In this document: one piece after another, positions 18,594 to 38,273 of the stretch | Numbering within the stretch: position 1 is the first letter of the stretch | Layout: each line of letters opens with the position of its first letter | Assembly (NCBI GenBank): GCA_036259535.1 | Contig: DATABO010000065.1 | Span: 13,624 to 77,623, forward strand | Reading direction: 5' to 3' | Source: Thermoleophilaceae bacterium | GTDB taxonomy: Bacteria > Actinomycetota > Thermoleophilia > Solirubrobacterales > Thermoleophilaceae | Length of the DNA: 64,000 nt | Program-made: the position numbers and the translations under genes | Notes under the pieces: generated by a model | The model's input: the letters and a program-made list of their open reading frames with translations, nothing else | The model's database searches: none | What the model was told of the DNA's origin: nothing

Positions 18594-18631
18594 GCGCCCG
18601 TAGCTCAGTGGATAGAGCGCTTGCCTCCGGA
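18594..18631 (+). pseudogene. 5' half of the host tRNA-Arg(CCG) gene (attL junction); downstream 18632-18666 is a decayed 3'-half-like sequence
   Basis: GCGCCCG TA GCTC AGTGGATA GAGC G CTTGC CTCCGGA. The following CCAGG..CAAGG CTCCAAT CGAGC CGGCCGT cannot form the anticodon stem, T stem or acceptor stem. The matching 3' half is at 38231-38273. Confidence 0.8.
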
Positions 18632-18727
18632 CCAGGAGTGCCAAGGCTCCAATCGAGCCGGCCGTTTCAAGCCAGGAGCGGGATTGCCCTGGTTGCGCCT
18701 GTTGCCCTGACGGGCTGAAACAGGGCT

Positions 18728-18751
18728 TCTGGCCAAAACTCTGGCCAAAAC
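18728..18751 (+). repeat. Tandem 12-nt repeat TCTGGCCAAAAC x2 (candidate integrase arm-type sites, P' arm)
   Basis: A perfect tandem copy 97 nt right of the attL core. A near-identical pair (GCTGGCCAGAAC TCTGGCCAAAAC) lies at 38102-38125, 106 nt left of the attR core. Confidence 0.5.
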
Positions 18752-18828
18752 CCCCGGCGATCGCCGGGGGTCGCCGGGCATCCGGCGATGCCGGCGCGGC
18801 GGTGTGGCGACCGGCGGAGGCCGGTCGC
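18751..18828 (+). promoter_or_regulatory. Palindrome/hairpin cluster upstream of xis (operator candidates)
   Basis: CCCCCGGCGATCGCCGGGGG is a perfect 20-nt palindrome (18751-18770). GCGACCGGC-GGAG-GCCGGTCGC is a 9-bp stem (18807-18828), 20 nt before the xis ATG. Confidence 0.35.
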
Positions 18829-18847
18829 GTCTTCTTGGGCACGGCCG

Positions 18848-19195
18848 ATGCAGCGTGTCGTCGACACCCCCGCCCCACTCTCAGAAGACCGCTTGGCGGA
18901 GGCGATCGCCAGCAAGGTCGTCGCGATGGTCCGCGACGAGCTGGGCTGGGCGCGCGACGAGGAGTGGATCGACGCCAAGGAGGTCGCGCGACGCTTCGGG
19001 CTGTCGCGCTCCTGGGTCTACGAGCACTCGGGGCTGCTCTGCGCACGACGTGCCGGGACTGGCAAGCGGCCGCGGCTGCGGTTCGAGCCGAGCGTTGTCG
19101 CCGCCGCCCTGCGCGACGCGCAGGCGGCTGCGGAGCGCGAGCCGGACCTCGGCGACCTGGAGATCCACGTTCCTCGGGTGCGCTCCAAGGCGTGA
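18848..19195 (+). CDS. xis: Excisionase / MerR-like HTH DNA-binding protein (Xis-type)
   Basis: WIDAKEVARRFGLSRSWVYEHSG...KRPRLRFEPSVV is a typical excisionase-family HTH. Lies immediately upstream of the integrase. ATG at 18848. Confidence 0.75.
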   Translation: MQRVVDTPAPLSEDRLAEAIASKVVAMVRDELGWARDEEWIDAKEVARRFGLSRSWVYEHSGLLCARRAGTGKRPRLRFEPSVVAAALRDAQAAAEREPDLGDLEIHVPRVRSKA

Positions 19196-19230
19196 GCGGC
19201 GCCCGCACTTCTTGAAGTTCGGAGGCAGGC

Positions 19231-20706
19231 ATGGCACGACCCAAGACAGGCAACGTCCGCACGACGGTCCGGACGGACGGCACTAGCTACTACTCGGCGC
19301 GGATCACCGTGGACGGCGATCGGGTGCCGTTGGAGCTCGGCGACGAGCGCGACGGTGTGACGAAGCTGATGGCCGAGGCCAAGCTCGACCGCATCCTCGA
19401 GCAGGTCCGGCTCGGGACGTGGGACGGCGAGGGCCGCAAGGGCGGCCCTCCCGGCCGCGAGCCGGAGCCGCTGATGGTCGGCGCGGCGGCGCGGTTCCTC
19501 GACTACAAGCGTGGCTGTCAGCTGCGCGACTCGACGATCGAGCGGATCACCTGGGCGCTTGACGGCCACCTCGTTCCGTTCTTCGGCAAGAAGCGGCCGA
19601 GCCAGATCACGCCGGAGCTGGTGGAGCGCTACGCGGCCCATGAGGTCGCCCAGCGCACACGGATCGCGGAGCTGCGCGAGGACGGGAAGTACCTGACCGG
19701 GCCGCGCGGCGGCGCGATGCGCGAGATGTCGAACGTGTCGATCAACCGGACGCTGACACTGCTCGCCGAGCTGCTGGAGTGGACGCGCGGCAAGGGCTGG
19801 GTCCGCGGCGCCAACGCGGCCGTGGGCTACCGGCTCAAGGAGGCGCAGCGGATCACCTTCGCCTTGGAGCCCGACGAGCTGGCCGACCTCCTGGCGGCCG
19901 TGGCGACGCCACGGCCGGCGCGTCGGCCGAGCGCTCGCACGGCCGCGCTGATGGAGACGTGCGTGCGGCTCCGCGACGAGGACTGCCTGGAGTGGAAGGC
20001 GATCGGGCGGCTGCTGGAGATCGCGCCCAGCACCGCCCACTACCACTACACGCGTGCGAAGTCGGCGGCCGAGCGAGTCGACGTCCGCCGCGCGGAGGTC
20101 GATCACATCTTCCTCTCGGTGCTGGCCGGCTCGGGCGCGCGAGTGACCGAGCTGTGCAAGCTCGACGTCGAGGACGTCGACCTCCCCCACTCCAAGTTCC
20201 TGATCGCTGACTCCAAGACGCCGACGGGCATCCGCGAGGTCAAACTGACCCCGGCGCTGGTCGAGCTGGTGCGGCGCTACTTCGCGTCGCGGCACGACCT
20301 CGCTCCGAACCAGCCGGCGTTCCCGACCTCCAGGGGCACGCGACGCACGAAGGACAGCGTGAACAAGCAGGTGCTTGCGCCTGCGATCGGGCTCGCGAAC
20401 GAGCTGCGCGCCGAGCGCGGCGAGCGCAAGCTGCCGCACGTGACGCCTCACGTCATGCGCCACACCTACATCACCCTCGCCTTCGAGGCCGGCTACTCGG
20501 TGCCGTATGTGATGCAGCAGGTCGGTCACCGTGAGCCCGGCACGACGATGAAGATCTACGCCAAGGTCTCCGCGCGGCGGGACCGCGAGGTCCACGACAC
20601 GGCGTTCGACCAGCTGCTCGTCGACGCGGCGCAGCCGCGCCCGGTCGAGCCGGAGGTCGAGATCGAGTCGATCGAGCCGATCGGGCGAGAGCTGGTAGCG
20701 GCGTAG
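19231..20706 (+). CDS. int: Tyrosine-type site-specific integrase (491 aa)
   Basis: Catalytic-domain motifs GARVTELCKL (Arg), HVMRHTYIT (H-x-x-R) and GHREPGTTMKIYAKV (His/Tyr). Adjacent to the tRNA junction. Confidence 0.95.
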   Translation: MARPKTGNVRTTVRTDGTSYYSARITVDGDRVPLELGDERDGVTKLMAEAKLDRILEQVRLGTWDGEGRKGGPPGREPEPLMVGAAARFLDYKRGCQLRDSTIERITWALDGHLVPFFGKKRPSQITPELVERYAAHEVAQRTRIAELREDGKYLTGPRGGAMREMSNVSINRTLTLLAELLEWTRGKGWVRGANAAVGYRLKEAQRITFALEPDELADLLAAVATPRPARRPSARTAALMETCVRLRDEDCLEWKAIGRLLEIAPSTAHYHYTRAKSAAERVDVRRAEVDHIFLSVLAGSGARVTELCKLDVEDVDLPHSKFLIADSKTPTGIREVKLTPALVELVRRYFASRHDLAPNQPAFPTSRGTRRTKDSVNKQVLAPAIGLANELRAERGERKLPHVTPHVMRHTYITLAFEAGYSVPYVMQQVGHREPGTTMKIYAKVSARRDREVHDTAFDQLLVDAAQPRPVEPEVEIESIEPIGRELVAA

Positions 20707-20739
20707 GTTCGTCCGACCGAACGCCTACGGTGCTGGGCC

Positions 20740-20970
20740 ATGCCTGATGCGGAGCTAGTGGCTGCGGTGATCGAGTCGTCGAAGCGGCTGATCGACTTGA
20801 GCCCTCACGGAGAGACGTCCGGCGCTGAGGTCGCGGCCGATCTCGGCCGGTCAGTCGAGGACGACGGGCTTGTGCACGCCTTCAACGAGGCCGAGCGCCG
20901 GGGCGACCTCAAGATCTTCTACGCGGGCGGCGGCGAGCTGCCGGAGTCCGTGTCCTTGCCGGGCTTCTAA
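20740..20970 (+). CDS. Hypothetical protein (76 aa)
   Basis: ATG start, good third-position GC and no recognisable family. Confidence 0.45.
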   Translation: MPDAELVAAVIESSKRLIDLSPHGETSGAEVAADLGRSVEDDGLVHAFNEAERRGDLKIFYAGGGELPESVSLPGF

Positions 20971-21290
20971 GCAGCCAGCGCCTCGCGCGGCACCGCATAG
21001 AACTCGGCACCGGTGTCGACGACCTGGCCGTAGCGGCGTCCGAGGCTGCGCGAGCGGATCGGGTCGGTCTGTCCGAGATAGCCGCCCGGGCTGCGATCCA
21101 GCGGGCAGCGGCGTCTGGGTCGACCGCGCTGTCGACACGGGAGCGCAGCAGCGCGACCATGCCCGGCTCGGTCGGGATCATGCTTGACGGGTCGACGGCT
21201 CTCAACGCGACTGCGATCTCGTCGTCAGAGGTCACGCAGAGAGCGTAGGCGGCGTGCCGGTCGTTGAGCTGAGCTGCGGACCGGGAGCCA
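20967..21290 (-). pseudogene. Decayed/frameshifted gene remnant
   Basis: Coding-like codon bias runs in one frame (..CVTSDDEIAVALRAVDPSSMIPTEPGMVALLRSRVDSAVDPDAAARW). Near 21090-21110 it switches to another frame (LDRSPGGYLGQTDPIRSRSLGRRYGQVVDTGAEFYAVPREALAA-stop at 20967). No clean start. Confidence 0.25.
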
Positions 21291-21317
21291 TCCTGACGGC
21301 GCGCGACACTCCTGGGG

Positions 21318-22634
21318 ATGGATCGGATCCCGACTGACTCGTTCTGCGAGGTCGCCCAGGTCGATCTCAGCACGGGCGAGCGACGATCCCTGCTTGCTGG
21401 CGACGAGCCCTTCGACGAGGACGCTGGCGGGATAGCTCGGATCGTCGTTCCTGGTGGCATCACGGTTCACGCCCTTGAGGTCTCCGCGTTCGAGGACTCG
21501 ATGGCCGTGTTGTTGATCCCGACGGCCGACGTCGACGGCGATGAGCTGTTCAAGGTGCGCCTCGACTTCTACACGGGCAGGCGTCCCGTGGTGACCATTG
21601 CGGCACGCGAGCCGTTGCCGCGTGCGGTTGTCGAGTTCGTGGCAGGGCGCATCGCTGTGTTGCTACTCGAGACGCCGCTCGACGAGAGCTCGCGATACCC
21701 CGACTTGGCCTTCAAAGCTGAGGGCATCGGAATCAAGATGCTCAGGAGCCGGATTCGCCGTGTCGAGCAGTCGGTGCGCGATGCCTTGGCTGACGAGCAG
21801 TTGACGACGGCCGACTACCGAGCGCTTCGGGAGTACCCCGCACGGCTGGCGCGAGTGGAGCACCTAGCCGCTGAGATGGCCGACTCCGAGCCTGAGATGC
21901 ACTCGTTCGAGCCAGTGTCCCAGTCCGGGTTCCCGACTCCCGTCGGTCCAGTTGGGCACGTGAGCTTCTACGGCAAGTGGGTCAACGACGCAGCCGCCGA
22001 TGCGCGCGACGCGGTGACCCGGATGTCGGGATTGCTGTCCAGTCAGCAGATCGTGTTGACGCAGAAGCAGGCGGAGGACGCGGCGCGCTTCCAGCGTCTC
22101 GTGACGATCGTCGGCGCGGCCGTGCTGGTGCCCGGTCTTGTAGCAGCGATCTTCGGAGCCAACGTGGGATTCCGCGGCCGGGACAGCGCCGAGGCGTTCT
22201 GGGCGATGATCGTGCTGATGATCGGGAGCGGCGTCGCGTCCTACGCGGTGATCCGCTCCTTTGAGCTCCCCGTGTGGGGGCGTTTGGCCGAACACGGCCC
22301 GCTGGCGAGCCTGTCGCGATGGTCAGGCGAACGGCGGCTGGCTGTGCTGGGAGTCGTGGCGCTGGCACTCATCGCGGTGGGCTTCGGCATGTTGGCCATC
22401 AGTGACAACGACTCGCAGGTGCGCCGGCCACAGTCGCAGGCTCCTTCTAGTGAGCGCGACACGAGGAACGCTGATCTACAAGGGGCGGCCGATGGTCCCC
22501 GGCCAGCTCTAGTTCCAGGTGAGTCCCAGCTCGATGCGCCGCTGGACGACCTGCTCGGTGGGCACCTTGAAGATGAGGGCGAGCGCTCGCGCGGTCATGC
22601 CGGCGTGCCCGACGAACAGGTGGACCGGAAGTAG
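21318..22634 (+). CDS. CorA-like membrane protein with degenerate signature (GANV instead of GMN)
   Basis: 438 aa with a soluble N-domain and long helices. TM1 is LVTIVGAAVLVPGLVAAIFGANVGF and TM2 is AFWAMIVLMIGSGVASYAVI. There is an extra TM, LAVLGVVALALIAVGFGMLAI. The last 126 nt overlap a convergent gene. Confidence 0.72.
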   Translation: MDRIPTDSFCEVAQVDLSTGERRSLLAGDEPFDEDAGGIARIVVPGGITVHALEVSAFEDSMAVLLIPTADVDGDELFKVRLDFYTGRRPVVTIAAREPLPRAVVEFVAGRIAVLLLETPLDESSRYPDLAFKAEGIGIKMLRSRIRRVEQSVRDALADEQLTTADYRALREYPARLARVEHLAAEMADSEPEMHSFEPVSQSGFPTPVGPVGHVSFYGKWVNDAAADARDAVTRMSGLLSSQQIVLTQKQAEDAARFQRLVTIVGAAVLVPGLVAAIFGANVGFRGRDSAEAFWAMIVLMIGSGVASYAVIRSFELPVWGRLAEHGPLASLSRWSGERRLAVLGVVALALIAVGFGMLAISDNDSQVRRPQSQAPSSERDTRNADLQGAADGPRPALVPGESQLDAPLDDLLGGHLEDEGERSRGHAGVPDEQVDRK

Positions 22635-22841
22635 GACGTCGCGGGCGAACTCGGCTGCGTGGTCGGGGGTGTACGGGCCGGGCTCGTCGCCTGTCTCGAT
22701 CAGGCAGGCGAACGTGGCGAGCGCCATCGCCCAGCGGCGGTCTGGATGGTCGGGCGCAAGCGCGGCGAGGTCGGGGTCGAGCTTGATCCTCGGCCCCTGG
22801 GCGAAAGCGACGAGCTGGCCATTGTGGAGGATCGCCTTCAC
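22509..22841 (-). CDS. Hypothetical protein resembling the C-terminal part of ImmA/IrrE-type proteins, no HExxH (110 aa)
   Basis: DHAAEFARDVLLPVHLF...ARALALIFKVPTEQVVQRRIELGL resembles the FAAELLMP...RLxxLGL end of ImmA/IrrE proteins. No HExxH is visible. GTG at 22841. High third-position GC. Confidence 0.5.
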   Translation of the reverse strand: MKAILHNGQLVAFAQGPRIKLDPDLAALAPDHPDRRWAMALATFACLIETGDEPGPYTPDHAAEFARDVLLPVHLFVGHAGMTARALALIFKVPTEQVVQRRIELGLTWN

Positions 22842-22850
22842 GGGACTGCC

Positions 22851-22877
22851 AGGGGCAGGGTCCTCAGCCCTGCCCCT
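22851..22877. repeat. Perfect 10-bp inverted repeat (hairpin) between two co-oriented genes
   Basis: AGGGGCAGGG-tcctcag-CCCTGCCCCT lies between the stop at 22900 and the GTG at 22841. No U-tract follows. Confidence 0.5.
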
Positions 22878-22899
22878 GCTCGGATCGAAGGCACCGTTC

Positions 22900-23238
22900 T
22901 CATGTGGCGTCGCGCAGATGCTCCAGGTCGGAGAGCAGATCGCCGAGGCGGTCGAGGCCGTGCATGACCAGCGCACGCGCCGACTCGGGAGAGTTGAGCG
23001 CGGCCATGATCGCGCGGATGCCATCTGCGATCCGGCCGTGGGTGTAGACGCCGCCGAACTCGAAGGCGAGACACTCGATGCACCGCTCGCCGATGAACTC
23101 GCGTTTGCTGACGGGGATGCCGCAGCCGTCGCACTTCGTGACCTCCTTCTCCTTCTCGTCGCCCTCGCGGAAATGGGCCTCCTGCTCGAGGCGGCGGGCG
23201 ATCCACTCCTTGTAGTCGGGTCGATCCTGTAGTGGCAC
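22900..23238 (-). CDS. Zinc-ribbon protein (112 aa), unknown function
   Basis: CDGCGIPVSKREFIGERCIECL (CxxC..CxxC). The GTG at 23238 is preceded by GAAGGGAGA. The track ORF to 23361 is over-extended. Confidence 0.65.
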   Translation of the reverse strand: MPLQDRPDYKEWIARRLEQEAHFREGDEKEKEVTKCDGCGIPVSKREFIGERCIECLAFEFGGVYTHGRIADGIRAIMAALNSPESARALVMHGLDRLGDLLSDLEHLRDAT

Positions 23239-23439
23239 GTGTCTCCCTTCGGGTAGAGACACCCGGGGTCCGTGCTCACGTGGCAGGCGATAACTTCCGT
23301 GCCGCGTCCGAGCTTCGGGTCGGGCGCCACGCCCCCGGCCGTTCGCGCGGTGCGGGGGCACTTACTTATTCGGTTGTCGCGGGCGATGCTACGACGCGAA
23401 TCGCCTGCTGTGGGCGATTTCGGCGAATCGTTACGTTCG

Positions 23440-24238: not shown

Positions 24239-24250
24239 GTCGTTCTCCTT

Positions 24251-24508: not shown

Positions 24509-24753
24509 CGGCTTGTCCTCCGTGTTGGTCGCTTGACGGGTAGGCGCAACACGGCCGCTTGAGGCGCAAGGGCGGAACCCGAAGCCCGTAGGGCGAGGGC
24601 GCGTCAGCGAGGCCGGCCCCGGCAGGGGGCGCCCGCAGGGCGACACGAAGTGCCGGCCTTGAAGCCCGGCGCCGCGGCCGTAAAGTGCCGACCGGCAAGC
24701 GACCGGCGGCGGAGGTCTCGATCGCGACCCCCGCCCCGGATCGTCAGGTGCGG

Positions 24754-25218: not shown

Positions 25219-25308
25219 GGGTTCTCCAATGGGTCGTGGCTCGCCGGATGCGGGCCGATCCCCTTCCGCCTGCACGCGCAGCGTGCGACTCTGGAAGGGG
25301 TCGGGCCG

Positions 25309-26172: not shown

Positions 26173-27696
26173 CTAGTCCTGCGGTGCCGCGTCGTCGGGC
26201 GAAACGGCCTTGATGTCGGCCGACAGCAGCTCGACCGCCTCGCGCATCGCGTAGTTGCTCCACTTGACGCGCTTGTACTGCGGCAGCTCCCGCTCGTCGG
26301 CGAGATATGCCGCGACCAGGGCCTCGCCGAGCAGCTCCAGCACCTCGTTGGCGGACTTCGCTCGCTCGATAGCGCCCTTGAGATAGTCGAGCGCCCTCTG
26401 CGAGTCGGCGTACTCGACGTCCTCACGGGTCTCGTTGCGCGTCTTGAGCTTGCGCACCGTCACCTCCTGCAACTGCGGGAGGACGAGGCGCAGGCCGTCG
26501 GCAGGCATGTCCTGGTTGTCGTGGAGCACGATCGCCGCGATCGCCTTGGCGCGGGCGAGCGCCTGGGAGCTGCGAACCTTGCCGCCACGGCGTCCGATCA
26601 GCTTGTTGCCAAGCGTGAGGTTCCCCGGTCGAGCGGCCTTGGCGTCCTCGCGGGCCTGCGCGCGGCGCTCGCGCTCGACGTCGTTGCCGGCGCCGGAGGG
26701 CGAGTCCGACGGATCCGGCGCGATGCGCTCCGGGCTGGTCGCCTCCGCGCACTCCCGCTCGACGCGCTCGACGATCCGCTCTGCGAGATCGGCGAGGAAC
26801 TCGCGGTCGGTGACGAACATCCTGGTGTCGTCGCTCCACTGGCTCTCGGTGGTGTGCTCGAGCAGGCAGCCAGCGGCGCGGGTGGCGTCGACGTCGGCCT
26901 CGTCGATGTCGACCCACGGGTCGTCGCCCTCCTGGGGCGAGTCTCCGTAGGAGGGGTCGAGCGCCTTCTGCACGCGAACGATCAGCGCATCGCGATTCTC
27001 CCCCGGCTCCACGAGCTCGCTGAGGGGCATCGACCAGTCCAGCTCGATCATCGTCGGCGCGGGGTCGAAGGACTCCGACGCGGTGGAGACGAGGATGTCG
27101 CCGAAGCGGTTGAGCACGTCGCGGCCGTCGATCTCCTTGCGGACGACGTACTCGCACATGCACTCCGCGATCCGCGGCGAGACCTTGGCGACCTCGCGCA
27201 GGTCGCGCTCGGCGGCGACCGGCACGTGGCCAGCGGCGATGTGGCGCTGGACGCCAGCGGGCAGCTTGAGCAGGCGAAGCCGCTCACTGACCCAGTTGGC
27301 GGACTTGCCCACGCGGGCGCCGATCGCCTTGTGAGTGGTCAGGTTCTCGGCCTTGGCGAGGCGGGTCAACGCCTCGGCCTCCTCGATGACGTCGAGGTCG
27401 CGTCGGATCAGGTTCTCCGCGATCGCGGCGGCGAGCGCGTCGTCGCCGGGCCGGATCAGTACCGGCACGCGCGTCAGGCCGGCGCCCTTGGCCGCGAGCA
27501 GCCGTCGCTCGCCCGCTACGACGATGTAGCCGCCGTCGCCGTCCTCGCGGACGGTCAGGGCGGTGACGACACCCTGCTTGCGGATGCTGGCCTCCAGCTC
27601 CGCGAGCGAGGCGTCGTCGAAGCTCGAGCGCGGGTTGTGCCTGTCCTCGACGGTGATCTTGTCGATGTCGACCACTGCGGTCGTGTCGTCGCTCAT
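26173..27696 (-). CDS. ParB/Srx N-terminal-domain protein (507 aa), plasmid/ICE type
   Basis: VDIDKITVEDRHNPRSSFDDASLAELEASIRKQGVVTALTV...YIVVAGERRLLAAKGAGLTRVPVLI is a ParB-like domain. Strong SD (AAGGAGGAAA). The long C-terminal region is unassigned. Confidence 0.85.
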   Translation of the reverse strand: MSDDTTAVVDIDKITVEDRHNPRSSFDDASLAELEASIRKQGVVTALTVREDGDGGYIVVAGERRLLAAKGAGLTRVPVLIRPGDDALAAAIAENLIRRDLDVIEEAEALTRLAKAENLTTHKAIGARVGKSANWVSERLRLLKLPAGVQRHIAAGHVPVAAERDLREVAKVSPRIAECMCEYVVRKEIDGRDVLNRFGDILVSTASESFDPAPTMIELDWSMPLSELVEPGENRDALIVRVQKALDPSYGDSPQEGDDPWVDIDEADVDATRAAGCLLEHTTESQWSDDTRMFVTDREFLADLAERIVERVERECAEATSPERIAPDPSDSPSGAGNDVERERRAQAREDAKAARPGNLTLGNKLIGRRGGKVRSSQALARAKAIAAIVLHDNQDMPADGLRLVLPQLQEVTVRKLKTRNETREDVEYADSQRALDYLKGAIERAKSANEVLELLGEALVAAYLADERELPQYKRVKWSNYAMREAVELLSADIKAVSPDDAAPQD

Positions 27697-28977: not shown

Positions 28978-28997
28978 GGCAACTCTCGGAGCCGTCG

Positions 28998-30410
28998 ATG
29001 AAATGCCGTGCGGACTGCAATCCTCACGTCATGGCATCGACGGCTCCGATCCCCGCTTCAAAGCTGTGCTGGTGGTGCAAGGATCCGGCGAACTCGCGCG
29101 AGCACAAGTTCAAGCGCAGCGATGTCGTTCGGGAGCACGGCAAGGGGCCGTACACCGGAGACGCGAAGCTCGTCCGCGTGACTGGCGAGGGCCGGTGGGA
29201 GATGCGCAGCAGCAAGAGCGGTCCGCTGAAGTTCGAGACCTCTCTGTGCGTTCGGTGTAACGACACGCGAAGCCAGCCCTTTGACGCGGCCTACGACAAG
29301 TTCATCGCCTGGCTGCTCGCGAACGAGGAGCTGGTGCTCAAGCAGCGGAAGTTCGATCTTCGCGCGATCTTCGGCGCCGATTGGGAGGCGGACGCGCTCA
29401 ACGTCTACCGCTTCTTGGTCAAGCACATCGGCTGTCGTCTCGCCGATGCCGACGACGGACTACTTCCGCCGAACGGCGTCATGGACGAACTGATCGCCTG
29501 CCTCGATGGCGGTGGTCCGGTCGAGTCGCTGGAGTGCAGCTTCTTCGTCGAGTCGGCGATGTTGCGGTGGTGTCAGATGCGGGACGACGACCCCCTGTGG
29601 GTTCGTCCGTTCGCGGTCGACACGATGCCGTTCACAAAGTCCAACGGCCAGCTCGAGGCCGTGTGGTCGACTTGGCGTTACGGCTGGATCACCTTCGCGT
29701 GGACGCTCGGCCCTGGAGCCTCGAAGCACTATCCGTTTCGCGACCGGGAAGTGCCGATGCCGATCGTGGCTGCGGCGACTGCATGGGATCCCTGGTTTGA
29801 GTTCGCGCTCGCCTGGGATCCCGCTCGGGGCGCCGAGGATGTCGGCGACGATGAGCCCCACCCGAACGACCAGATCGACCCCGAGAGTGCGCTCGATAGA
29901 TCGCCCGTCGCGCTCGCGTTCGCCGTCGGGGCGCTTGACTTCGAGGCTACGACTCGGCATGTCGGTCCAGACGAGCGCACCAACGGGTACGTTGAGGACG
30001 AGTCGTTGGTCGAACCTGAGCTGGAGCTCCAGCGTGCCGCGATGCTCGTCGCGGCCTGCCGCGGATGGGCCGAGGGTGACCTCGATGACGGCCGCGCGCG
30101 TCGAGTTGCCGAGAACGCCGAGCTGTCCGAGGCTGCAGCCCTCAAGGCTGAGAGCGATCGAATGCACGCGGCCCAAAGCGATGATCGGGCGGAGTCCCTG
30201 CGAACCGCCTTTGCGTGCATGGCGACCCTGAAGCTGTCCGAGGCGATTCTCGCGGACTTGCACTCCCAAGAGGGACAAGATGCGTTGGTTGACGTTGGCC
30301 GGTTCGCGGGATGCAGCGTGATGTCGGCGGCCTTCGCCGTGAGTGACATCGCGCGGGGATTCGAGAACGTCGCGGCTGTTGTCGCCGCACTTGCTCGCGC
30401 GGAACTTTGA
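28998..30410 (+). CDS. HNH-type (HNH_5-like) nuclease-domain protein with a large unassigned C-terminal region (470 aa)
   Basis: CWWCKDPANSREHKFKRSDV...SLCVRCNDTRSQPFD fits the pattern CxxC..EH..CxxCN. The ATG at 28998 has GGAG 6 nt upstream. The track ORF from 28644 is over-extended. Confidence 0.7.
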   Translation: MKCRADCNPHVMASTAPIPASKLCWWCKDPANSREHKFKRSDVVREHGKGPYTGDAKLVRVTGEGRWEMRSSKSGPLKFETSLCVRCNDTRSQPFDAAYDKFIAWLLANEELVLKQRKFDLRAIFGADWEADALNVYRFLVKHIGCRLADADDGLLPPNGVMDELIACLDGGGPVESLECSFFVESAMLRWCQMRDDDPLWVRPFAVDTMPFTKSNGQLEAVWSTWRYGWITFAWTLGPGASKHYPFRDREVPMPIVAAATAWDPWFEFALAWDPARGAEDVGDDEPHPNDQIDPESALDRSPVALAFAVGALDFEATTRHVGPDERTNGYVEDESLVEPELELQRAAMLVAACRGWAEGDLDDGRARRVAENAELSEAAALKAESDRMHAAQSDDRAESLRTAFACMATLKLSEAILADLHSQEGQDALVDVGRFAGCSVMSAAFAVSDIARGFENVAAVVAALARAEL

Positions 30411-31210: not shown

Positions 31211-34200
31211 TCAGCGCGAGAGGCCGGGCGCCTCGGGCTGAGGCGTGAGGTCGGGTGTCGGGTCGACGTCGGGTGTATCGAACAGCAGCTCGGCGAGCTT
31301 GTGGGTGTGCTGCCAGTCAGCTGCTTGGCGGCCGGTGAGGCTGGTGGGGTCGTGGTCGTGCGGGTATTCGCCGTATTGGAGGCGGTAGGACTCTTGAGCG
31401 GCGACGGCTTGCTCCCAGCGCTCGCGGTCGGTGGGCGCCTCGGGCCGCTGGCCGAGCTGGCGCTCGATGGCGGGGTCGGTGTCGAGCGCGGCGATCCGTG
31501 TCGCACGCCAGTGGGCGTGCGCGCGGCGTGCGGCTAGCTCGCGCTCGGCGGCGGTGGCGTCGACGATCTCCATTTCGTGCTGGTCGATGACCGTGGCGGG
31601 ATCGACGGAGGCGGTGTCTGTGCGGTCAGCGACCTCGGCGCGGGCGGCGGTGAGCGCATGGTCGAGCTGGTGGATGCGCTGGTTGAGGGTGGCGCGGCGG
31701 TCGCGGTCGCGGCGGGCGAGCCCGTCGCGCTCCTGGCGGGCGTTCGCGAGCAGTCCGTCAAGGTGGGCGGCGTTGGCGGCGGCGCGCTCGAGCAGCTCGG
31801 CGTCGCGGGCGCGGCGAGCATGACGTGGGATCGTGGAGAGGATTCGCTCGCCGCGGTCGCGGATCTCGATGAGCTGGGCGGTGGTGAGCTGGCCGAGGTC
31901 GGCGTCGATCTCGCTGACGTCGACCGCGAGCTGCTTGGCGCGCTCGACGCCGAGGGCTCGCTCTAGCTCGTCGTAGAGGGGCTGGTCTTGCAGGCCGGGG
32001 AGCTGCGCACGGTCGAGGTCTGCGTCCTGGCCGACGTTGATGTAGAAGCGCGAGCTGTCGGTGTGACGCGACGAAGCGACGTAGCCGAGCTCGCGGGCGA
32101 GGTCGGGCGAGCCCAAGACGAAGGTGTCGCCGATCGTCATGCCCTGGGACTTGTGGACGGTCTGGGCGTAGCCGTGGCTGAGATGGCCGTCGGCGAGGTA
32201 GTCGGCGGGCAGGATCACCTCGGGGCCGGCGTCGAGTGCGGCGTGCAGCTCGCCGGCCTGGTGGTCGGTGCGGGTGACGGTGGCGCGGTTGCCGTTTCGC
32301 AGCCTGTGGCTGCCCTCGTCGGTCGTCGCGACCCACTGGTTGCGCAAGGCGAGCACGCGATCGCCTTCGGCGAACAGCCGGTCGCCGACGACGAGGGCGG
32401 TGCTGTCGTCGAGGTCGCCGGCCGCGACACGCGCCTGGCGGGCGAGGTCATTGAGGGCGTGGGCCTCGTCGCGGGTGGCGGTGAGCATCTGCGTCTCGAC
32501 CTGCCCATGCTCGCGGGCGGCGACGAACCAGTCGGCGACGAGCTGATGGAGCTGGTCGTCGGCGCCCTGGCATGGGACGAGCCGGCCGTGCTGGTCGTAG
32601 GCGGCGACCCACTCGGAGATGTCGCCGTGGCGGAGCTGGTCGAGCGCCTCGCGGTCCCAGGCGTGCTGTTGGCGGTAGACCTCCGTCAGCTCGATCGTGC
32701 CGAGCCGGTCGGCGAGAGCGGCGAAGCCGCCGCCGGCCTCGACGGCGGCTAGCTGGCGCTCGTCGCCGATCAGCACGACCTTGGCGTTGGCCTGGGCCGC
32801 GTGGTCGAGCAGCCGGGCCATGCGGCGGGTGTCGACCATCCCGGCCTCATCGACGACGAGGACGGTGCGCGCACCGAGTGTCCAGTCGCCGCCGCGGTCG
32901 AGGTCTTGGAGCAGTCCGTGGACTGTGTAGCTGTCGATCCCGCCACGGGCGCGCAGCTCGTCGGCGGCCCGGCCGGCGAGCGCGGCGCCGACGACGCGGT
33001 GCCCGGCCTGCTCCCACAGCTCGCGCGCCGCGTCGATCGCCGTCGTCTTGCCGGTCCCGGCCCTGGCGCGCACGACCTCGACCCCGTGACCGGACGCGAC
33101 GAGCGATCGGACCATCCGCTGCTGCTCGTCGGAGAGCACTAGCCCGCCGGGCCGCCGCGCGAACAGGTCGTCGCCATCGGCGAGCCGGACGACTCCCGCT
33201 CCCTCCCCCACCCTGCCGAGGGCCTGGTCGACCATCGCGGCCTCCACGGAGAGCATGTCCGCCGTGGTCAGCGCGGCCTCTCTGCCCGCTCCGGCAGCCC
33301 GGCCGCGCACCCGTGGCCCGGCGGCCTGCTCACCGTCAACGACCACGACCTGATCGGAAGCGATCAGCCGATCGGCGATGTCCTCGATCCTCTCGATCGA
33401 CCCGCCCCGGCCATGTGCGGCGGCGAGGTTCTGGACGACCTGGCGGCGGTGGAAGGTCGACCGCTCGCTGGTCAGTCCCTCGGCGGCGATCAGCTCGCCG
33501 ATGGTCTCGCCGATCTCCAACCGGTCGAGGTCGCGGAACTCGCCACGGCCGATCGCGCCGGCCAGCTCGTCGGGTCCGAATCCGTGCTCTTGGGCGACGG
33601 CCCGCCACTGGTCGCGCTGCTCGGCGAGGTCGAAGGACTCCTTGCCCTTGCGTGTCGACAAGGCGGCGATCTCGGCCTCGCGGGCACTCGTCCGGCCGGC
33701 TCGGTCGAGGGTGTCGAGGATCTGCTTGCGGCGCTTGGACAGCGCGAGCGCGAGCGGCCGGGGAACCCCAGCGATCTCGGCGGCGCCCTTGTGGACATCG
33801 GTCCACTGGACGCCGAGCTCGCGGGTCAGCCGCTCGCGCAGCTCGGCTTGGAAGACGTAGCCGGCGGCCATCCGGTGCTGGTAGAGGTCGCGGGCGTCGA
33901 GGGTCCGCCAGGCGTCCTCGACGCCTTGGGCGGGGTCGCCGCAGCGGGTCATGTTCGCGACGAGGAAGTGGACGTGGATGTGCGGGTCGCCCTCGCGGGA
34001 GAAGCGGTGCGGGAACGCCGCGCCGATGAACCCCTCCCCCTCCAGCGGGATGTGTCCGCCGCGCCCGGCGCGCGATGTGCAGGCGTGCCGCTCGAGGTAG
34101 CCGAGCGCGGCCCGGCCGGCTCCGTGGGTGGCCTCCCACACCGCCTCGGCGACCTGCGGCTGGCCGTACTCGTCGGCGAGCGCCCAGAGCGTCGAGACCG

Positions 34201-34492
34201 ACTTCGGGACGGCCATCTGGAGGTCGATGCCCTTGACTGCGTGCTCGCCGGGAGGGCGGCCGAGCTGGTCGCCGCTGACCGGGTGGCGGCACTCGAACAG
34301 GGCTTGCAGCTCGCCGTCTTGGACCTGTCCGGCAAGGCCGAGGTTCGCGGCTCCCCGGCCGGTCCAAGTGCCGGGCGCCTCGCCCTTGCCGGAGTAGTAG
34401 TCCTCGGCGCCCTGGGCGACCTGCTGGGTGTAGTAGTCGGGGGTGCGCCAGTGGCCTCCCCCGCGTCCTCCGATCTTGCCGATGGTGAGCAT
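31211..34492 (-). CDS. MobF-family relaxase/helicase (TrwC/TraA-like, 1093 aa)
   Basis: MLTIGKIGGRGGGHWRTPDYYTQQVAQGAEDYYSGKGE is a TrwC-type N-terminus with catalytic Tyr candidates. His triad in REGDPHIHVHFLVAN. RecD-like helicase Walker A in RARAGTGKTT. The track ORF to 34699 has a Pro-rich false extension. Confidence 0.93.
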   Translation of the reverse strand: MLTIGKIGGRGGGHWRTPDYYTQQVAQGAEDYYSGKGEAPGTWTGRGAANLGLAGQVQDGELQALFECRHPVSGDQLGRPPGEHAVKGIDLQMAVPKSVSTLWALADEYGQPQVAEAVWEATHGAGRAALGYLERHACTSRAGRGGHIPLEGEGFIGAAFPHRFSREGDPHIHVHFLVANMTRCGDPAQGVEDAWRTLDARDLYQHRMAAGYVFQAELRERLTRELGVQWTDVHKGAAEIAGVPRPLALALSKRRKQILDTLDRAGRTSAREAEIAALSTRKGKESFDLAEQRDQWRAVAQEHGFGPDELAGAIGRGEFRDLDRLEIGETIGELIAAEGLTSERSTFHRRQVVQNLAAAHGRGGSIERIEDIADRLIASDQVVVVDGEQAAGPRVRGRAAGAGREAALTTADMLSVEAAMVDQALGRVGEGAGVVRLADGDDLFARRPGGLVLSDEQQRMVRSLVASGHGVEVVRARAGTGKTTAIDAARELWEQAGHRVVGAALAGRAADELRARGGIDSYTVHGLLQDLDRGGDWTLGARTVLVVDEAGMVDTRRMARLLDHAAQANAKVVLIGDERQLAAVEAGGGFAALADRLGTIELTEVYRQQHAWDREALDQLRHGDISEWVAAYDQHGRLVPCQGADDQLHQLVADWFVAAREHGQVETQMLTATRDEAHALNDLARQARVAAGDLDDSTALVVGDRLFAEGDRVLALRNQWVATTDEGSHRLRNGNRATVTRTDHQAGELHAALDAGPEVILPADYLADGHLSHGYAQTVHKSQGMTIGDTFVLGSPDLARELGYVASSRHTDSSRFYINVGQDADLDRAQLPGLQDQPLYDELERALGVERAKQLAVDVSEIDADLGQLTTAQLIEIRDRGERILSTIPRHARRARDAELLERAAANAAHLDGLLANARQERDGLARRDRDRRATLNQRIHQLDHALTAARAEVADRTDTASVDPATVIDQHEMEIVDATAAERELAARRAHAHWRATRIAALDTDPAIERQLGQRPEAPTDRERWEQAVAAQESYRLQYGEYPHDHDPTSLTGRQAADWQHTHKLAELLFDTPDVDPTPDLTPQPEAPGLSR

Positions 34493-34824
34493 CGGAGGGG
34501 TAGACGCAACCTTGGTGCAAGTGTGTGATCCGTTGGGCGGTCCCGTAGGGAGCGGCTGCTGTTGTGGAGGGGTGGGAGCCGAGCGGAGCGAGGCGAGCGG
34601 GCCGGTCAGAAGTGGTGTCGTGCTGTGGCGGTGAGGGTGCGGACGGTTCTGAAGCGGTGCGGTGGAGCTGGCGGGTGGGCGCGTCAGACTGGGGAACAAG
34701 TGTTCGTGTCGTGGTCGACAGTCGAGCCGGTCCGGAGCCGGTGAGCCGCCATCCCGATCCGGTGGACGCGTACCGCCAGGCAGTCGCCGAGAACCGGCCG
34801 CCGGCTCAGATGTCAGGCCGGCTT

Positions 34825-34938
34825 CCTCGGCCGCGCAAGATCGGCGCCAGCATCGCCCGCGCAGACATCGCCCACTTCCTCCTGTCCCAAGTAGATGATC
34901 GGCGCTTCACTCGAGCGGCACCCGCGATCAGCGGGTGA
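34825..34938 (+). pseudogene. 3' fragment of an NAD(P)H-binding (NmrA/flavin-reductase-like) oxidoreductase gene
   Basis: Only the C-terminal ..PRKIGASIARADIAHFLLSQVDDRRFTRAAPAISG-stop is protein-like. It resembles the C-terminus of NAD(P)H-binding SDR-like proteins. The upstream part of the ORF is non-coding-like. Confidence 0.4.
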
Positions 34939-35006
34939 CAGCCCCCGCGCTTGGCCCGAGCATGTGCTGAGAGGACGGCGCGGGCGATCCGAGAAGCCCT
35001 GTCCTC

Positions 35007-35044
35007 GGCAGGACAAGCGCCCGTAGCTCAGTGGATGGAGCGCC
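35007..35044 (+). pseudogene. Third tRNA-Arg(CCG) 5'-half copy (internal att-like junction)
   Basis: GCGCCCGTAGCTCAGTGGATGGAGCGCCGCC CTCCGGA, then GCAGCAGCGCC..., which cannot pair with it. It shares the CCTCCGGA core with 18624, 37997 and 38231. Confidence 0.6.
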
Positions 35045-35556
35045 GCCCTCCGGAGCAGCAGCGCCTGTCGCCTGCGGCGGGCGTCGGGCCTCAGTGATCG
35101 GCTACCTCGAGGCTCACTCCGGTCTCGCTCCCAGCGCTTGGCATGGCATTCGGTGCAGGCCGAGCATCGGTATGGGGAAGGACTACCGGCTCCGTGGGAG
35201 GTATGTCGCTTTCGAGCATCGAGGTTCTCCTCTCCGCTTCTGGCCTCGTTGTCCCAACGAACACCACCAGCCGGCGCATCGGGTCTCCCATCGCTCTCTT
35301 CGCTCGCTGACTTGGCTCCTACCCTTGGCCGGTCGAAACGACGCATTCTCGTTCCGCCGCCACGCGTCTCCCCGATGTCGGGAGGTCGTCCGACGAACGA
35401 GCGGCGGATTGCTCTAGTCGACTGAGTCGCCAGCGAAGACGCTGAGATCGGTGCTCACGACGGAGCGGTGGGTCGTCTGGACCTTGATCTGCCCGTGCCC
35501 AGTCCGCGACCCCGTGCCAGGACAACACGGAAGCGTCTACACTCGTGCGACGTGGC

Positions 35557-35675
35557 TTGACGCTGGACCCTTGCTCTTGGGGCACTTTGCCGGATCACGG
35601 GTCGCCTGCGAATCGTCCGTTTCCTTCTTCGCATCGCGGTCCTCATTTGAGGGAGGCGGAGGAAGGCGGCTCGCC
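35557..35675 (+). promoter_or_regulatory. Conserved promoter/structured 5' leader of DUF2294 gene (copy 1)
   Basis: TTGACG -35-like hexamer plus a leader alignable nearly base-for-base with 39099-39214. Stem GGGTCGC..GCGGTCC (35599-35605 / 35636-35642) plus an inner GCGAA/TTCGC stem. The loop is CCGUUUCCUUC. Confidence 0.5.
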
Positions 35676-36077
35676 ATGACTGGCAGCCACACGGCGGAGC
35701 ATCCATCTGGAGGCGTTACTGCCTCAGCTGTCTCCAACGGGGTCGTGCGCCTGCTCAGGGAGTACACCGGCCGCGGCCCCACGCGGGCGCGTACCCATCT
35801 CAACGACGATCTCGTGACCGTCGTGTTGGAGGACACCCTGACCAAGGGGGAGCGGAGCCTCGTCGCCGATGGCGAGACGGCCCTCGTCCTCCAAGCACGC
35901 CAGGCGTACCAGCGGACGATGAAATCCGACCTGATCGACCTCGTCGAGCAGGCGACTGGCCGCAAGGTCCGCGCATTCCTCAGCGCCAACAACGTCGATC
36001 CCGACGTTGCGGTCGAGTCGTTCGTCCTCGAGCCGAGCGCGACTGCTTCGGTCAGCCAAGACGGATACTCCGACTAG
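35676..36077 (+). CDS. DUF2294-domain protein (133 aa), paralogue of 39215-39616
   Basis: SNGVVRLLREYTGRGPTRARTHLNDDLVTVVLEDTLTKGERSL...GRKVRAFLSANNVDPDVAVESFVLEP fits the DUF2294 pattern. ATG at 35676 after GAGGGAGGCGGAGGAAGG. Confidence 0.85.
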   Translation: MTGSHTAEHPSGGVTASAVSNGVVRLLREYTGRGPTRARTHLNDDLVTVVLEDTLTKGERSLVADGETALVLQARQAYQRTMKSDLIDLVEQATGRKVRAFLSANNVDPDVAVESFVLEPSATASVSQDGYSD

Positions 36078-36090
36078 CTGGCCTCGCGGG

Positions 36091-36468
36091 TCAAGCCGCG
36101 TTTGGGGACTCTGTGGTGTCGGCGTGAGAGGCCGTGTGAGCCTTTCCGTTGCCCGGGTCGATGAACGTGACCTGGCGGTCGATCTGGCAGACCTCGAACG
36201 GCCGCCATGCTGGGCCGGTCGGGCGCACGACTAGGAATCGGATGCCGCGCCCCGCCGCGCGCCGATGGTTGCAGACCACCATGTGGATGCCCGACGAATC
36301 GCAGAAGGCGACCTCGCTCAGGTCGAGGACGATGGTCTCGGGACAGCGCGAGAAGGCTCCGTCCAGGGCGTGGCGAACGGTCTCCACGGACGCCAGATCG
36401 ATCTCGCCTCGAATGGCCACGATCTGGGTCGTACCGAGAACATCTGACTGAACGTCTACAAGCGGCAT
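36091..36468 (-). CDS. STAS-domain protein (anti-sigma-factor antagonist family, 125 aa)
   Basis: IVAIRGEIDLASVETVRHALDGAF...IVLDLSEVAFCDSSGIHMVV is a SpoIIAA/RsbV-like motif with the DSSG phospho-Ser site. ATG at 36468 with a GAGGAG SD. Confidence 0.85.
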   Translation of the reverse strand: MPLVDVQSDVLGTTQIVAIRGEIDLASVETVRHALDGAFSRCPETIVLDLSEVAFCDSSGIHMVVCNHRRAAGRGIRFLVVRPTGPAWRPFEVCQIDRQVTFIDPGNGKAHTASHADTTESPNAA

Positions 36469-36655
36469 GCCGGCTCCTCGAAGATCCTGTTCTCCGAGGG
36501 ACCGACGCACCCATCGACTGCGCCCGGCCGTCCTCGTGCACTGCGTGAGCCGCACAGCTCTCGTCTGCTGAGCCCGTACGTCGATATTAGCGCCGGCTCG
36601 GCCTTTCCGACCAGAGCAACCACGGTTGTTCCGGCATCCGCCGCAAGGGGAAGCG

Positions 36656-37330
36656 CTAGCCGGTCACGCCGGTGTGATCGTGCGCCTCGCCGACGGGCTT
36701 GGACTCGGGAGAGCCGCGCTGGCGCAGGTAGACGGCGAGGATCGCCATCGAGCCGACCGCGAGGAACTCGGACTGCCAGTTCTGCAGCGTCCGCTCCCAG
36801 AAGTCGGCGCTGCCGAGGTACTGCACGAAGTCGAGCCCAGACTGGTGGTGCTCGAGCCGCTCCTCGTTGTAGGCGACGCGGCCGGTGATCGCCTGGCCGA
36901 GCCAGGACAGCAGCCAGATCGCGCCCATTACGATCAGCAGCGAGTTCGAGAACGCGCGCGTGCGCAGGCCGCCGGCGCGAGCCCACAGCGGCGAGTCCTC
37001 ATCGGCGTGGCGACCAACCTTCTGCTCCTCGTCCGACTCGCCGCCGGCCTGGTCGAGCTCCTTGGACTCCGGCGACCCGCGCTGCAGGAACCAGACCGTG
37101 GCGGTGGTGTAGAGCGCAAACTGGAGGTACTCCGACTGCCAGTTCTCGAGCATCGCGACGCCGAACTCCGACGACAGCAGGTAGCGGCCGTAGCCGATCG
37201 ACTCGCCGTCGTGGCGCAGCTGGCTGTTGTTGAAGTCCTGCCAGCCGGCCAGCGACTGCAGGCCCAGCGCGATCAGGAAGATCGTGAGGAAGAAGATCGA
37301 CAGGCTGTTCTCGCGCAGGAACCGCTTCAC
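36656..37330 (-). CDS. DUF6766-family membrane protein (224 aa, internal duplication)
   Basis: Two repeats of NWQSE(Y/F)L...(FL/YL)(Q/R)QRGSPESK. The GTG at 37330 overlaps the stop of a 27-codon micro-ORF (GTGA). Confidence 0.8.
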   Translation of the reverse strand: MKRFLRENSLSIFFLTIFLIALGLQSLAGWQDFNNSQLRHDGESIGYGRYLLSSEFGVAMLENWQSEYLQFALYTTATVWFLQRGSPESKELDQAGGESDEEQKVGRHADEDSPLWARAGGLRTRAFSNSLLIVMGAIWLLSWLGQAITGRVAYNEERLEHHQSGLDFVQYLGSADFWERTLQNWQSEFLAVGSMAILAVYLRQRGSPESKPVGEAHDHTGVTG

Positions 37331-37410
37331 TGGCCTATCAGCCCGATCACGATGTAGAGGGCCAGGCCGAGCGCGATGATCGCGGTGTAGGTCCAGAACA
37401 TCACCCTCAT
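37327..37410 (-). CDS. Hydrophobic micro-protein (27 aa), not in the ORF track
   Basis: ATG AGG GTG ATG TTC TGG... encodes MRVMFWTYTAIIALGLALYIVIGLIGQ-stop. Strong third-position GC. Its ATG overlaps the lipoprotein stop (TGATG). Its stop overlaps the next GTG (GTGA). Confidence 0.45.
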   Translation of the reverse strand: MRVMFWTYTAIIALGLALYIVIGLIGQ

Positions 37411-37820
37411 CAGGACTCGACCTCGCAGTCATAGGGCGCTTCCTGATCGGGCACCGGCCGGCATCCGGCGGCCGTCACCAGCCAGCCGTGCTCGCCGGTC
37501 TCCTCGACGAAGACGCTGTCGCCGCCGTCGATCTCGACCTTCGCCTCGGTGACATAGGCCTGCTCGCCGGTAACGCGCGTACCGGACAGGTCGAGCGCAA
37601 GCACCGCCTCGGGGCACGGCTTGCGCTCGTCCTTCTCCAGCTGCTCGCGTGTGTCGTCGCTGAACTGCGCGCAGGCGGTCTCGCCGTCCTGGTCGGCGTA
37701 GGCGGCGTAGAGCCGCTCAGCGGCGCCGGCGGCCCCGTCCGAGTCGGTCGCCCCGCAGCCACCCAGCACGAGTGCGAGTGTCGCGGCTACCAGGACGGCG
37801 CGGTACGGGAACGCCGCCAT
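37410..37820 (-). CDS. Putative lipoprotein (136 aa)
   Basis: MAAFPYRAVLVAATLALVLGGCGATD is a signal peptide with an LVLGGC lipobox. ATG at 37820. Confidence 0.75.
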   Translation of the reverse strand: MAAFPYRAVLVAATLALVLGGCGATDSDGAAGAAERLYAAYADQDGETACAQFSDDTREQLEKDERKPCPEAVLALDLSGTRVTGEQAYVTEAKVEIDGGDSVFVEETGEHGWLVTAAGCRPVPDQEAPYDCEVES

Positions 37821-37966
37821 GCCACTTCTGTTCCCCGTGGCATGCCACGGGCAAACCACGCCTGGCCACTCAAGCTCCGTGCCGCGGATCCCACACAGCT
37901 GGCCAAGCCTTCGCTTCGATCCCGCCTGAGTAGGACAGCGCGGAATCCCTATCCTCTACGACCTAA

Positions 37967-38039
37967 GCGCCCGTAGCTCAGAGGATAGAGCGTCCGCCTC
38001 CGGAGCGGAAGGTCGCTGGTTCGACTCCAGCCGGGCGCG
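37967..38039 (+). tRNA. tRNA-Arg (anticodon CCG), intact, carried inside the insertion
   Basis: GCGCCCG TA GCTC AGAGGATA GAGC G TCCGC CTCCGGA GCGGA AGGTC GCTGG TTCGACT CCAGC CGGGCGC G. All four stems pair perfectly. 73 nt, CCA not encoded. Confidence 0.95.
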
Positions 38040-38101
38040 TTTCCGGGCGGGCTCTCGGCGGTCGTGAGGGCGTTGTCACGGCCGCCGGGAGGCCGGAAAT
38101 C

Positions 38102-38125
38102 GCTGGCCAGAACTCTGGCCAAAAC
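38102..38125 (+). repeat. Tandem 12-nt repeat GCTGGCCAGAAC TCTGGCCAAAAC (candidate arm-type sites, P arm)
   Basis: Matches 18728-18751 (22/24 by hand), including the trailing CCCC(C)G. Lies 106 nt left of the attR core. Confidence 0.5.
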
Positions 38126-38230
38126 CCCCGTAAACGCCGTCGATCCGACGCGATATGATGGCCGGACGATGACACTGAGCGCCTCCGATTTGCCTGCAAA
38201 TCGGCGCGATTCGAACCTAGCTGACGCGGT

Positions 38231-38273
38231 CCTCCGGAGCAAGAGGTCGCTGGTTCGAATCCAGCCGGGCGCG
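38231..38273 (+). pseudogene. Displaced 3' half of the host tRNA-Arg(CCG) gene (attR junction)
   Basis: C CTCCGGA GCAAG AGGTC GCTGG TTCGAAT CCAGC CGGGCGC G. GCAAG complements the CTTGC of the 5' half at 18594-18631. Upstream of the core there is no D arm or acceptor. Confidence 0.8.

Follow-up and report, generated by a model that had tools for sequence, protein, structure and literature searches.

A tRNA-Arg(CCG) gene of a Thermoleophilaceae bacterium split by a conjugative-type element that probably brings its own replacement tRNA

Several actinobacteriophages, for example Fionnbharth, LeBron, and Gaia, follow a strategy known as tRNA-dependent lysogeny, which parts of a recent report describe as integration at a short core without rebuilding of the target tRNA gene, with survival of the lysogen requiring a phage-borne cognate tRNA and with close relatives of these phages restoring the tRNA (Guerrero-Bustamante & Hatfull, mBio 2024, PMC10865867). 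[quoted passage not shown] Passages in the literature also record host tRNA substitution by integrated elements, namely Lj965 in Lactobacillus johnsonii (cited in PMC10865867) and phage-related sequences of Sinorhizobium meliloti (PMC11476347). Here we analyze a 64-kb stretch of DNA (the window) from a metagenome-assembled genome (MAG) of a Thermoleophilaceae bacterium, and confirm from its sequence that the native tRNA-Arg(CCG) gene is cut in the anticodon loop by 19.6 kb of integrated conjugative-element DNA. This DNA probably represents the ICE counterpart of tRNA-dependent lysogeny, in which an arriving element would split the working tRNA-Arg(CCG) gene and bring a new copy, which later arrivals would then target.

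The locus resembles the phage systems in combining a tyrosine integrase, flanked by arm-type sites, with an attB overlapping a tRNA gene, in a common core that spans only 8–17 bp and therefore leaves no tRNA rebuilt at the left junction (attL), in an element-borne tRNA with the same anticodon, and in close relatives that do rebuild the tRNA (integrase identity 78% for the phages and 64% here). It differs from them in that the element is of conjugative type (it has a MobF relaxase, and VirB4 and a coupling protein are found in its relatives) and contains no phage genes, in that its P' arm keeps a recognizable fossil of the tRNA 3' half (22–24 of 35 positions), and in that imported tRNAs appear to be re-targeted, giving nested generations; a requirement for the imported tRNA, moreover, is here an inference. 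With restoring islands it shares a crossover in the anticodon loop, an integrase at the tRNA-proximal junction, and a displaced 3' fragment at the far end, and the related loci L035, L003, and L004 behave exactly as such islands do. However, restoration of the target gene fails in the integrase clade studied here, at four of four junctions, whereas it succeeds in the sister element L035. As in the Lj965 and S. meliloti cases, in so far as parts of the sources describe them, an incoming tRNA gene would take over from the host gene where the element integrates, but those cases are phage-related and the same parts do not describe serial re-targeting of an imported copy. Full-text literature searches of incomplete coverage returned no ICE example of tRNA-dependent integration, which is no proof of novelty; the conjugative-element variant of the recently described phage strategy, with its evidence of serial re-targeting, is probably new.

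The split gene and its junctions

Four tRNA-derived stretches of the window are central to the argument: J1 (18594–18631), J2 (35017–35054), J3 (37967–38039), and J4 (38231–38273) (Table 1). J1 ends, within the anticodon loop, in the 8-bp crossover core CCTCCGGA (18624–18631), with which J4 begins. A first-pass annotation of the same DNA had placed the two native halves at these coordinates and proposed that they re-join to tRNA-Arg(CCG), and both points hold: ARAGORN calls this tRNA on the in silico join of 18594–18631 and 38239–38273, and the minimum-free-energy fold of the joined gene is a cloverleaf (−34.7 kcal/mol). Combining non-cognate halves (J1 5' with J3 3', or J2 or J3 5' with J4 3') destroys the anticodon stem in each case, which identifies J1 and J4 as parts of a single gene. 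Patterns for the 5' half, the 3' half, and the 28-nt arm motif described below each have 0.00 expected matches, as estimated from 100 shuffles of the window.

The sequences next to the two halves are those of integrase attachment arms. A 28-nt motif (2 x CTGGCCAAAAC) occurs in both, at 18729 and 38103, and the intact tRNA of L035 is followed 62 nt later by an analogous motif. Downstream of the motif, the P arm on the right matches that of L031 with z = 23.7, and it is homologous to the P arm of L006, an ICE associated with tRNA-Ala. In L031 the P arm is followed by the core and a GCAAG-type 3' half, forming a right junction (attR) at the same host locus, with a host flank 78% identical to window 40085–43077. 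On the left, the P' arm together with the xis and int genes follows other tRNA-Arg 5' halves and other flanks in L001, L032, and L076, and therefore belongs to the element; the arrangement that the first-pass annotation had named as refuting its reading, island-free relatives carrying the sequence from 18632 onward directly behind the 5' half, was not seen. As reconstructed, attP and attB have only the 8 bp of CCTCCGGA in common. The split is evidently the product of tyrosine-integrase recombination at this core with an ICE of the MobF-relaxase family, in support of the anticodon-loop crossover by a tyrosine-integrase element proposed at first pass. The anticodon loop is said to have been described by Williams in 2002 as a sublocation of tRNA-gene integration sites.

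Halves separated at the anticodon loop are also a feature of the split tRNA genes of Nanoarchaeum and Caldivirga, whose products are joined in trans via complementary extensions. The position of the break would suit a functional split gene of this kind, with halves transcribed apart, but complementary extensions are absent here: the sequence after the 5' half is not complementary to that before the 3' half, the duplex energy (−40.7) is no better than that of shuffles (−42.8 ± 4.7), and the flanks are integrase att arms found in other elements too. Trans-joining is thus effectively refuted.

Further scans for these arms gave little. Among the matches listed, an arm-motif scan of genome contigs yielded chance matches in unrelated phyla only; viral-contig scans with the arm motif and with the degenerate half described below yielded 0 matches; and a scan with the integrase alignment returned distant catalytic-domain matches only. 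Contigs carrying relaxase P0032, all from one sequencing project, had no att site within 2.1 kb. The idea that the attP of the ICE family carries a complete tRNA was rejected: at the right end of L006, the called 'tRNA-Ala' is a partial gene with an unrelated 5' part.

The left junction rebuilds no tRNA. Here the native 5' half is followed by a degenerate 3' half that has an ungapped identity of 22/35 to the real one, a value reached by 0 of 5000 shuffles. ARAGORN calls no tRNA at the resulting chimera (18594–18666), which scores 23.5 bits against the Rfam tRNA model, below the gathering threshold of 29 bits, with the T arm unaligned. The decayed half noted at first pass from a hand alignment (15/20) is thereby substantiated, and the native gene copy is inactivated, because nothing at this junction rebuilds it. 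Within the degenerate half there is a shifted hairpin, GGCTC-CAATC-GAGCC. Its form GGCTC(G)-loop-(C)GAGCC recurs at window 18635–18664 and in L001, L032, and L076 with a conserved stem and a variable loop (CAATC, AAT, or AAG), and may reflect retention of a structural or protein-binding role and not neutral decay.

The decay is not a local event in this genome, as comparison with related elements shows. We define the integrase clade by at least 90% identity (90–95% among the window, L001, L032, and L076), and the degenerate half is present in all four left junctions available for it, with 22–24/35 identity to the real 3' half. The four stand behind three anticodon-stem types (CTTGC, TCCGC, and CCGCC) and different flanks; fixation of the degenerate half in hosts with three tRNA variants argues for repeated successful integration without rebuilding of the tRNA. 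Since the P' arm of the clade holds only this degenerate half, its attL is not a tRNA. Sister lineages, with integrases of 51–65% identity, rebuild an intact tRNA. In L035 (64%), an intact tRNA-Arg(CCG) is rebuilt at the same chromosomal locus as in the window, made up of the pyr operon, a Lactamase_B-like gene, and tRNA-Arg, and intact 3' portions are also present in L003 (tRNA-Val), L004 (tRNA-Ala), and L044. The degenerate half is evidently a derived trait of the clade.

In all four related hosts seen, elements of this integrase family occupy the site formed by the pyr operon, a Lactamase_B/Apyc1-like gene, and tRNA-Arg(CCG) (window 9780–18044; L035 2–7868; L076 52–999; L031 3–2963, corresponding to window 43077–40085). 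No empty version was found among them, and the site appears to be an integration hot spot. In the window, a metallophosphoesterase gene (18082–18570) lies between the Lactamase_B-like gene and the tRNA, which abut directly in L035 and L076.

Imported tRNA-Arg(CCG) copies and nested integration

Two further tRNA-Arg(CCG) copies, J2 and J3, are enclosed by the two halves of the native gene, which makes them imported by definition. The intact J3, 190 bp inside the right junction J4, was overlooked at first pass, as were the third 5' half (J2) and the 28-nt arm motif. J3 differs from the native copy, having the anticodon stem TCCGC/GCGGA, the D loop AGAGGATA, and the T loop TTCGACT, and it folds into a cloverleaf (−36.7 kcal/mol). 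J2 is itself split: its core is followed by 11 nt that resemble the start of the degenerate half and then by unrelated DNA, giving a truncated copy (35017–35065) that is 89% identical to attL plus flank of L076 and 86.6% identical to attL of L032. Upstream of both J2 and J3, about 11 nt before the tRNA start, is a CCCTRTCCTC element that is also found at the tRNA-Arg genes of L032, L035, and L076. The native tRNA of the window has a −10-like element TAGACT in place of the CTATCCTC seen at other loci.

The presence of J3 alters what the split means for the host. CGG, which accounts for 22% of Arg codons in the host genes (17.5 per 1000 codons), needs a CCG or UCG anticodon, and at this frequency a need for a replacement tRNA is plausible. 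Most likely J3 supplies CGG decoding, presumably being both expressed and needed. The first-pass annotation had the host gene inactivated, and for this gene copy that stands, attL rebuilding no tRNA; the implied loss of tRNA-Arg(CCG) from the cell does not, since an intact cognate gene and its promoter-like flank occupy 37942–38039 inside the insertion. Plain inactivation, in which the function was destroyed and its loss tolerated, agrees with an attL that is not a tRNA, but the intact cognate tRNA 190 bp inside attR and the share of CGG among Arg codons, with its anticodon requirement, make it very improbable, and the finding goes beyond it.

Comparable nesting is seen elsewhere. In L076, an orthologue of window gene 17109–18044 comes first; behind it, the native promoter has been fused, with nothing in between, to sequence from inside a P' arm (17/18 identical to window 18687–18704), and scrambled element fragments and 7.5 kb of other genes come next. 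The active attL lies 8.3 kb beyond the fused promoter, where a promoter-like flank near-identical to that of J2 leads into a 5' half of CCGCC type and then into the core, the degenerate half, xis, and int. In the interval 1000–1600 of L076, the native tRNA-Arg 5' half is deleted outright, with shuffled fragments of element genes after the promoter, so this host cannot regain its native gene by excision. L032 keeps, 1.4 kb upstream of its active left junction, a relic that combines the core with 19 nt of the degenerate half. Thus, at each of the three loci with enough upstream sequence, the window included, an active or relic junction lies in a tRNA-Arg gene inside older inserted DNA. The window and L076 elements themselves are decayed, with secretion genes lost in the window and the relaxase truncated in L076. 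The 19.6 kb of the window are not one simple element but a composite, with the relic junction J2 and foreign cargo.

A composite of this kind could in principle be an assembly chimera, in which strains of the metagenome were misjoined at repeated tRNA pieces; repeats of 26–38 nt and the P/P' arm motif are present in the window, and the integrase is identical to a MAG protein. Yet the repeats are short and mutually non-identical, the flanks are unique at every junction, the native halves still match although the whole insertion separates them, and the nesting recurs in two independent JGI assemblies (L076 and L032), so misassembly has very little to recommend it.

A probable conjugative counterpart of tRNA-dependent lysogeny

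The three features that define tRNA-dependent lysogeny at the level of DNA are all found here: the integrase adjoins attL, its arms are common to other elements, and the gene halves are predicted to rejoin; neither junction has a functional tRNA, attR being without a 5' half; and a cognate tRNA-Arg(CCG), at 37967–38039, lies inside the insertion. A temperate phage is not, because the element is of conjugative type, so that the system works like tRNA-dependent lysogeny but is not lysogeny. We propose that an ICE of the integrase clade integrated at CCTCCGGA and split the native gene, leaving an attL without a tRNA, and that the imported intact tRNA-Arg(CCG), J3, would supply CGG decoding in place of the host gene. 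Elements of the clade would carry such a tRNA gene along. Because the imported tRNA is a perfect attachment site, later arrivals could integrate into the imported copy, and the window would then display three generations: the native gene (J1/J4), an earlier import that was split and truncated (J2), and the current intact copy (J3). Each newcomer would enter the only intact copy, giving nested generations in the putative order native, J2, J3. On this model, two integrations and two deletions, one removing the interior of the second element and the other one of two directly repeated P arms, would lead to the present structure; alternatively, the integrase-bearing element could have come last, into an older left junction, in a similar number of steps. 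We also considered that J3 might be a former attL that became joined to the P arm when the two 28-nt motifs recombined.

A wider version of this proposal, a 'tRNA relay', holds that the clade has given up rebuilding its target and brings a complete replacement instead, the working tRNA-Arg(CCG) being handed from element to element, leaving nested split copies and a host dependent on the latest arrival. We put this forward tentatively, with slightly more doubt than confidence.

Several observations weigh against the proposed counterpart of tRNA-dependent lysogeny. No empty attB was found in the sequences searched. The right end with an intact tRNA is seen in the window only, the other contigs of the clade ending before their right end (the far end of the 24-kb L001 contig was sought via VirB4 homologues and their clusters, which led to other ICEs); at L031 attR, at the same host locus, no tRNA was found within 965 bp of the P arm, and L076 has no intact tRNA in 21.4 kb. 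J3 stands apart from the integrase-bearing backbone, with a breakpoint at ~34812, the J2 relic, and foreign cargo between them; its source may be a different element that has since been deleted. Over the 63 nt that separate J3 from the arm motif (38040–38102), there is no significant match to either kind of arm. A sigma-70 consensus scan detected no promoter, which says little in an actinobacterium of 70% GC, and the tRNA inventory covers 64 kb of the genome, so that other CGG decoders are possible elsewhere.

Part of this evidence would also be accommodated by an incidental composite, in which tandem arrays, imprecise excisions, or captured chromosomal DNA left J2 and J3 behind as passive remnants, the elements do not depend on them, and the host tolerates the split thanks to other CGG decoders elsewhere. 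The breakpoint near 34812 with lower-GC cargo between backbone and J3, an attR without an adjacent tRNA in L031, a spacer after J3 assignable to neither arm, and the decay of the window and L076 elements (lost secretion genes and, in L076, a truncated relaxase) all fit such an origin. Against it stand the fixation of the degenerate half in four of four junctions across three tRNA variants, which implies repeated integration without rebuilding, the imported tRNA-Arg genes inside insertions at all three loci with enough sequence, and the intact 3' half kept in sister lineages, where the degenerate half is absent. We consider the incidental composite unlikely, and favor an ICE that splits its target and brings a replacement.

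If this is correct, tRNA-dependent integration is not confined to phages but extends to conjugative elements, and its range widens from mycobacteria and their relatives to take in the Thermoleophilia. It would also bear on a question that PMC10865867 leaves open for the phages, namely which came first, loss of the restoring core or acquisition of the tRNA: at this locus the decayed 3' half can still be recognized, and a sister lineage that restores the tRNA occupies the same site. Under the tRNA relay, the recognizable degenerate half would be an intermediate caught in the act and would suggest that the core was lost after acquisition of the tRNA. More broadly, core translation genes could in this way be taken over by mobile elements, which would become difficult to shed and generate integration hot spots for themselves. 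For annotation, the boundaries of such composites will be misplaced by island finders whose criteria are a regenerated tRNA together with a displaced fragment.

Gene content of the inserted DNA

The features of the insertion are collected in Table 1.

Table 1. Features of the split tRNA-Arg(CCG) locus and of the inserted DNA (window coordinates)
Position	Strand	Feature	Details
18594–18631	+	J1, 5' half of native host tRNA-Arg(CCG)	Anticodon-stem strand CTTGC; host side of attL
18632–18666	+	Degenerate tRNA 3' half, element-borne, start of P' arm	22/35 identity to real half; same sequence in L001, L032, L076
18729–18756	+	P'-arm direct repeats (2 x CTGGCCAAAAC), putative arm-type integrase-binding sites	Same motif and distance in L001, L032, L076
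18848–19195	+	Xis-like small helix-turn-helix (HTH) protein, putative recombination directionality factor	Weak HTH_17 match; conserved upstream of int in L001, L003, L004, L035, L076
19231–20706	+	Tyrosine integrase, 491 aa, full length	PF00589, E = 4e-18
20707–22509		Window-specific cargo with CorA-like open reading frame (ORF) 21318–22634	Absent from L001, and from L032 except first ~570 bp
26173–27696	−	ParB-like protein, element backbone	Syntenic in L001, L004, L032
28866–28950		Coupling-protein (T4CP) gene remnant, 3' end, 85 bp	89% identity to L005 17331–17415
31211–34492	−	MobF/TrwC relaxase-helicase, ~1093 aa, appears intact	TrwC E = 6e-78; NCBIfam MobF 221 bits vs cutoff 100
34493–34812		Relaxase-upstream region (possible oriT) and truncated start of 127-aa gene	Backbone homology ends
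34992–35065	+	J2, relic of imported tRNA-Arg(CCG), itself split	Promoter-like flank AGAAGCCCTGTCCTCGGCAGGACAA, 5' half 35017–35054 (CCGCC stem), core, 11 nt
35066–37941		Lower-GC cargo: MpsC-like 35451–36077 (+), DUF6766 36656–37432 (−), 149-aa ORF 37410–37859 (−)	Pfam
37942–38039	+	J3, intact imported tRNA-Arg(CCG) 37967–38039 with promoter-like flank GGAATCCCTATCCTCTACGACCTAA	ARAGORN; Rfam 68.9 bits
38072–38230	+	P arm, arm-type repeats 38103–38130	84% identity to L031 attR
38231–38273	+	J4, core CCTCCGGA (38231–38238) and native tRNA-Arg(CCG) 3' half, GCAAG strand	attR

The insertion is evidently a decayed MobF-relaxase ICE of Thermoleophilia that keeps genes for the integrase, the Xis-like protein, the ParB-like protein, and the relaxase, and no phage genes were found in it. 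The integrase has R304, K329, H407, R410, H433, and Y443 in invariant alignment columns and is 100% identical to P0276 of a Thermoleophilaceae MAG; further homologues come from Solirubrobacterales and Thermoleophilaceae metagenome bins. In the CorA-like cargo, 21677–21768 weakly resembles tRNA-Sec (24 bits, E = 0.8, far under the gathering score), probably by chance.

Between the window-specific cargo and the coupling-protein remnant lie GNAT, ParB-like, and response-regulator-like genes, and a DUF5677 gene separates the remnant from the relaxase. The 85-bp remnant marks a deletion that removed the type IV secretion module; beside this scar, at 28986–29049, is a 64-bp near-perfect palindrome whose 32-nt arms are 84% complementary and have no spacer between them. 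L001, L004, and L005 carry VirB4, a 3D-domain hydrolase, a single-stranded DNA-binding protein (SSB), and the coupling protein, the first three of which are absent from the window, so the family is one of ICEs and the window copy a deletion derivative. The complete set expected of a self-transmissible ICE (integrase, relaxase, coupling protein, and VirB4-type genes) is found in L001 and L004 and not in the window, whose copy, having lost the secretion genes, would at best be mobilizable by a helper element.

Homology of the backbone to L036–L043 extends to ~34812, and to L076 up to 34762, which defines the breakpoint. The cargo beyond it (35066–37941) has a GC content of 0.670, compared with 0.71 in the host flanks; it has no homologue among the elements fetched for comparison, PADLOC identified nothing in it, and exact look-ups of the DUF6766 protein and of the window metallophosphoesterase gave no record.

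The window relaxase is 92% identical to P0029. The relaxase module is 88–92% identical in DNA (89–92% in protein) to those of L006, the ICE that ends at tRNA-Ala, and L005, in which a tRNA-His gene lies ~4.5 kb upstream of the relaxase. The integrase module is closest to the tRNA-Arg elements, and integration and transfer modules therefore appear to have been shuffled between elements. Defense-like cargo is found beside the integrase or relaxase of relatives (L003 14424–15784, L076 11482–14154, and L005 5554–7257), its types being a ThsB-type TIR protein with a caspase-like peptidase, an Mrr-helicase fusion, and an Mrr_cat protein.

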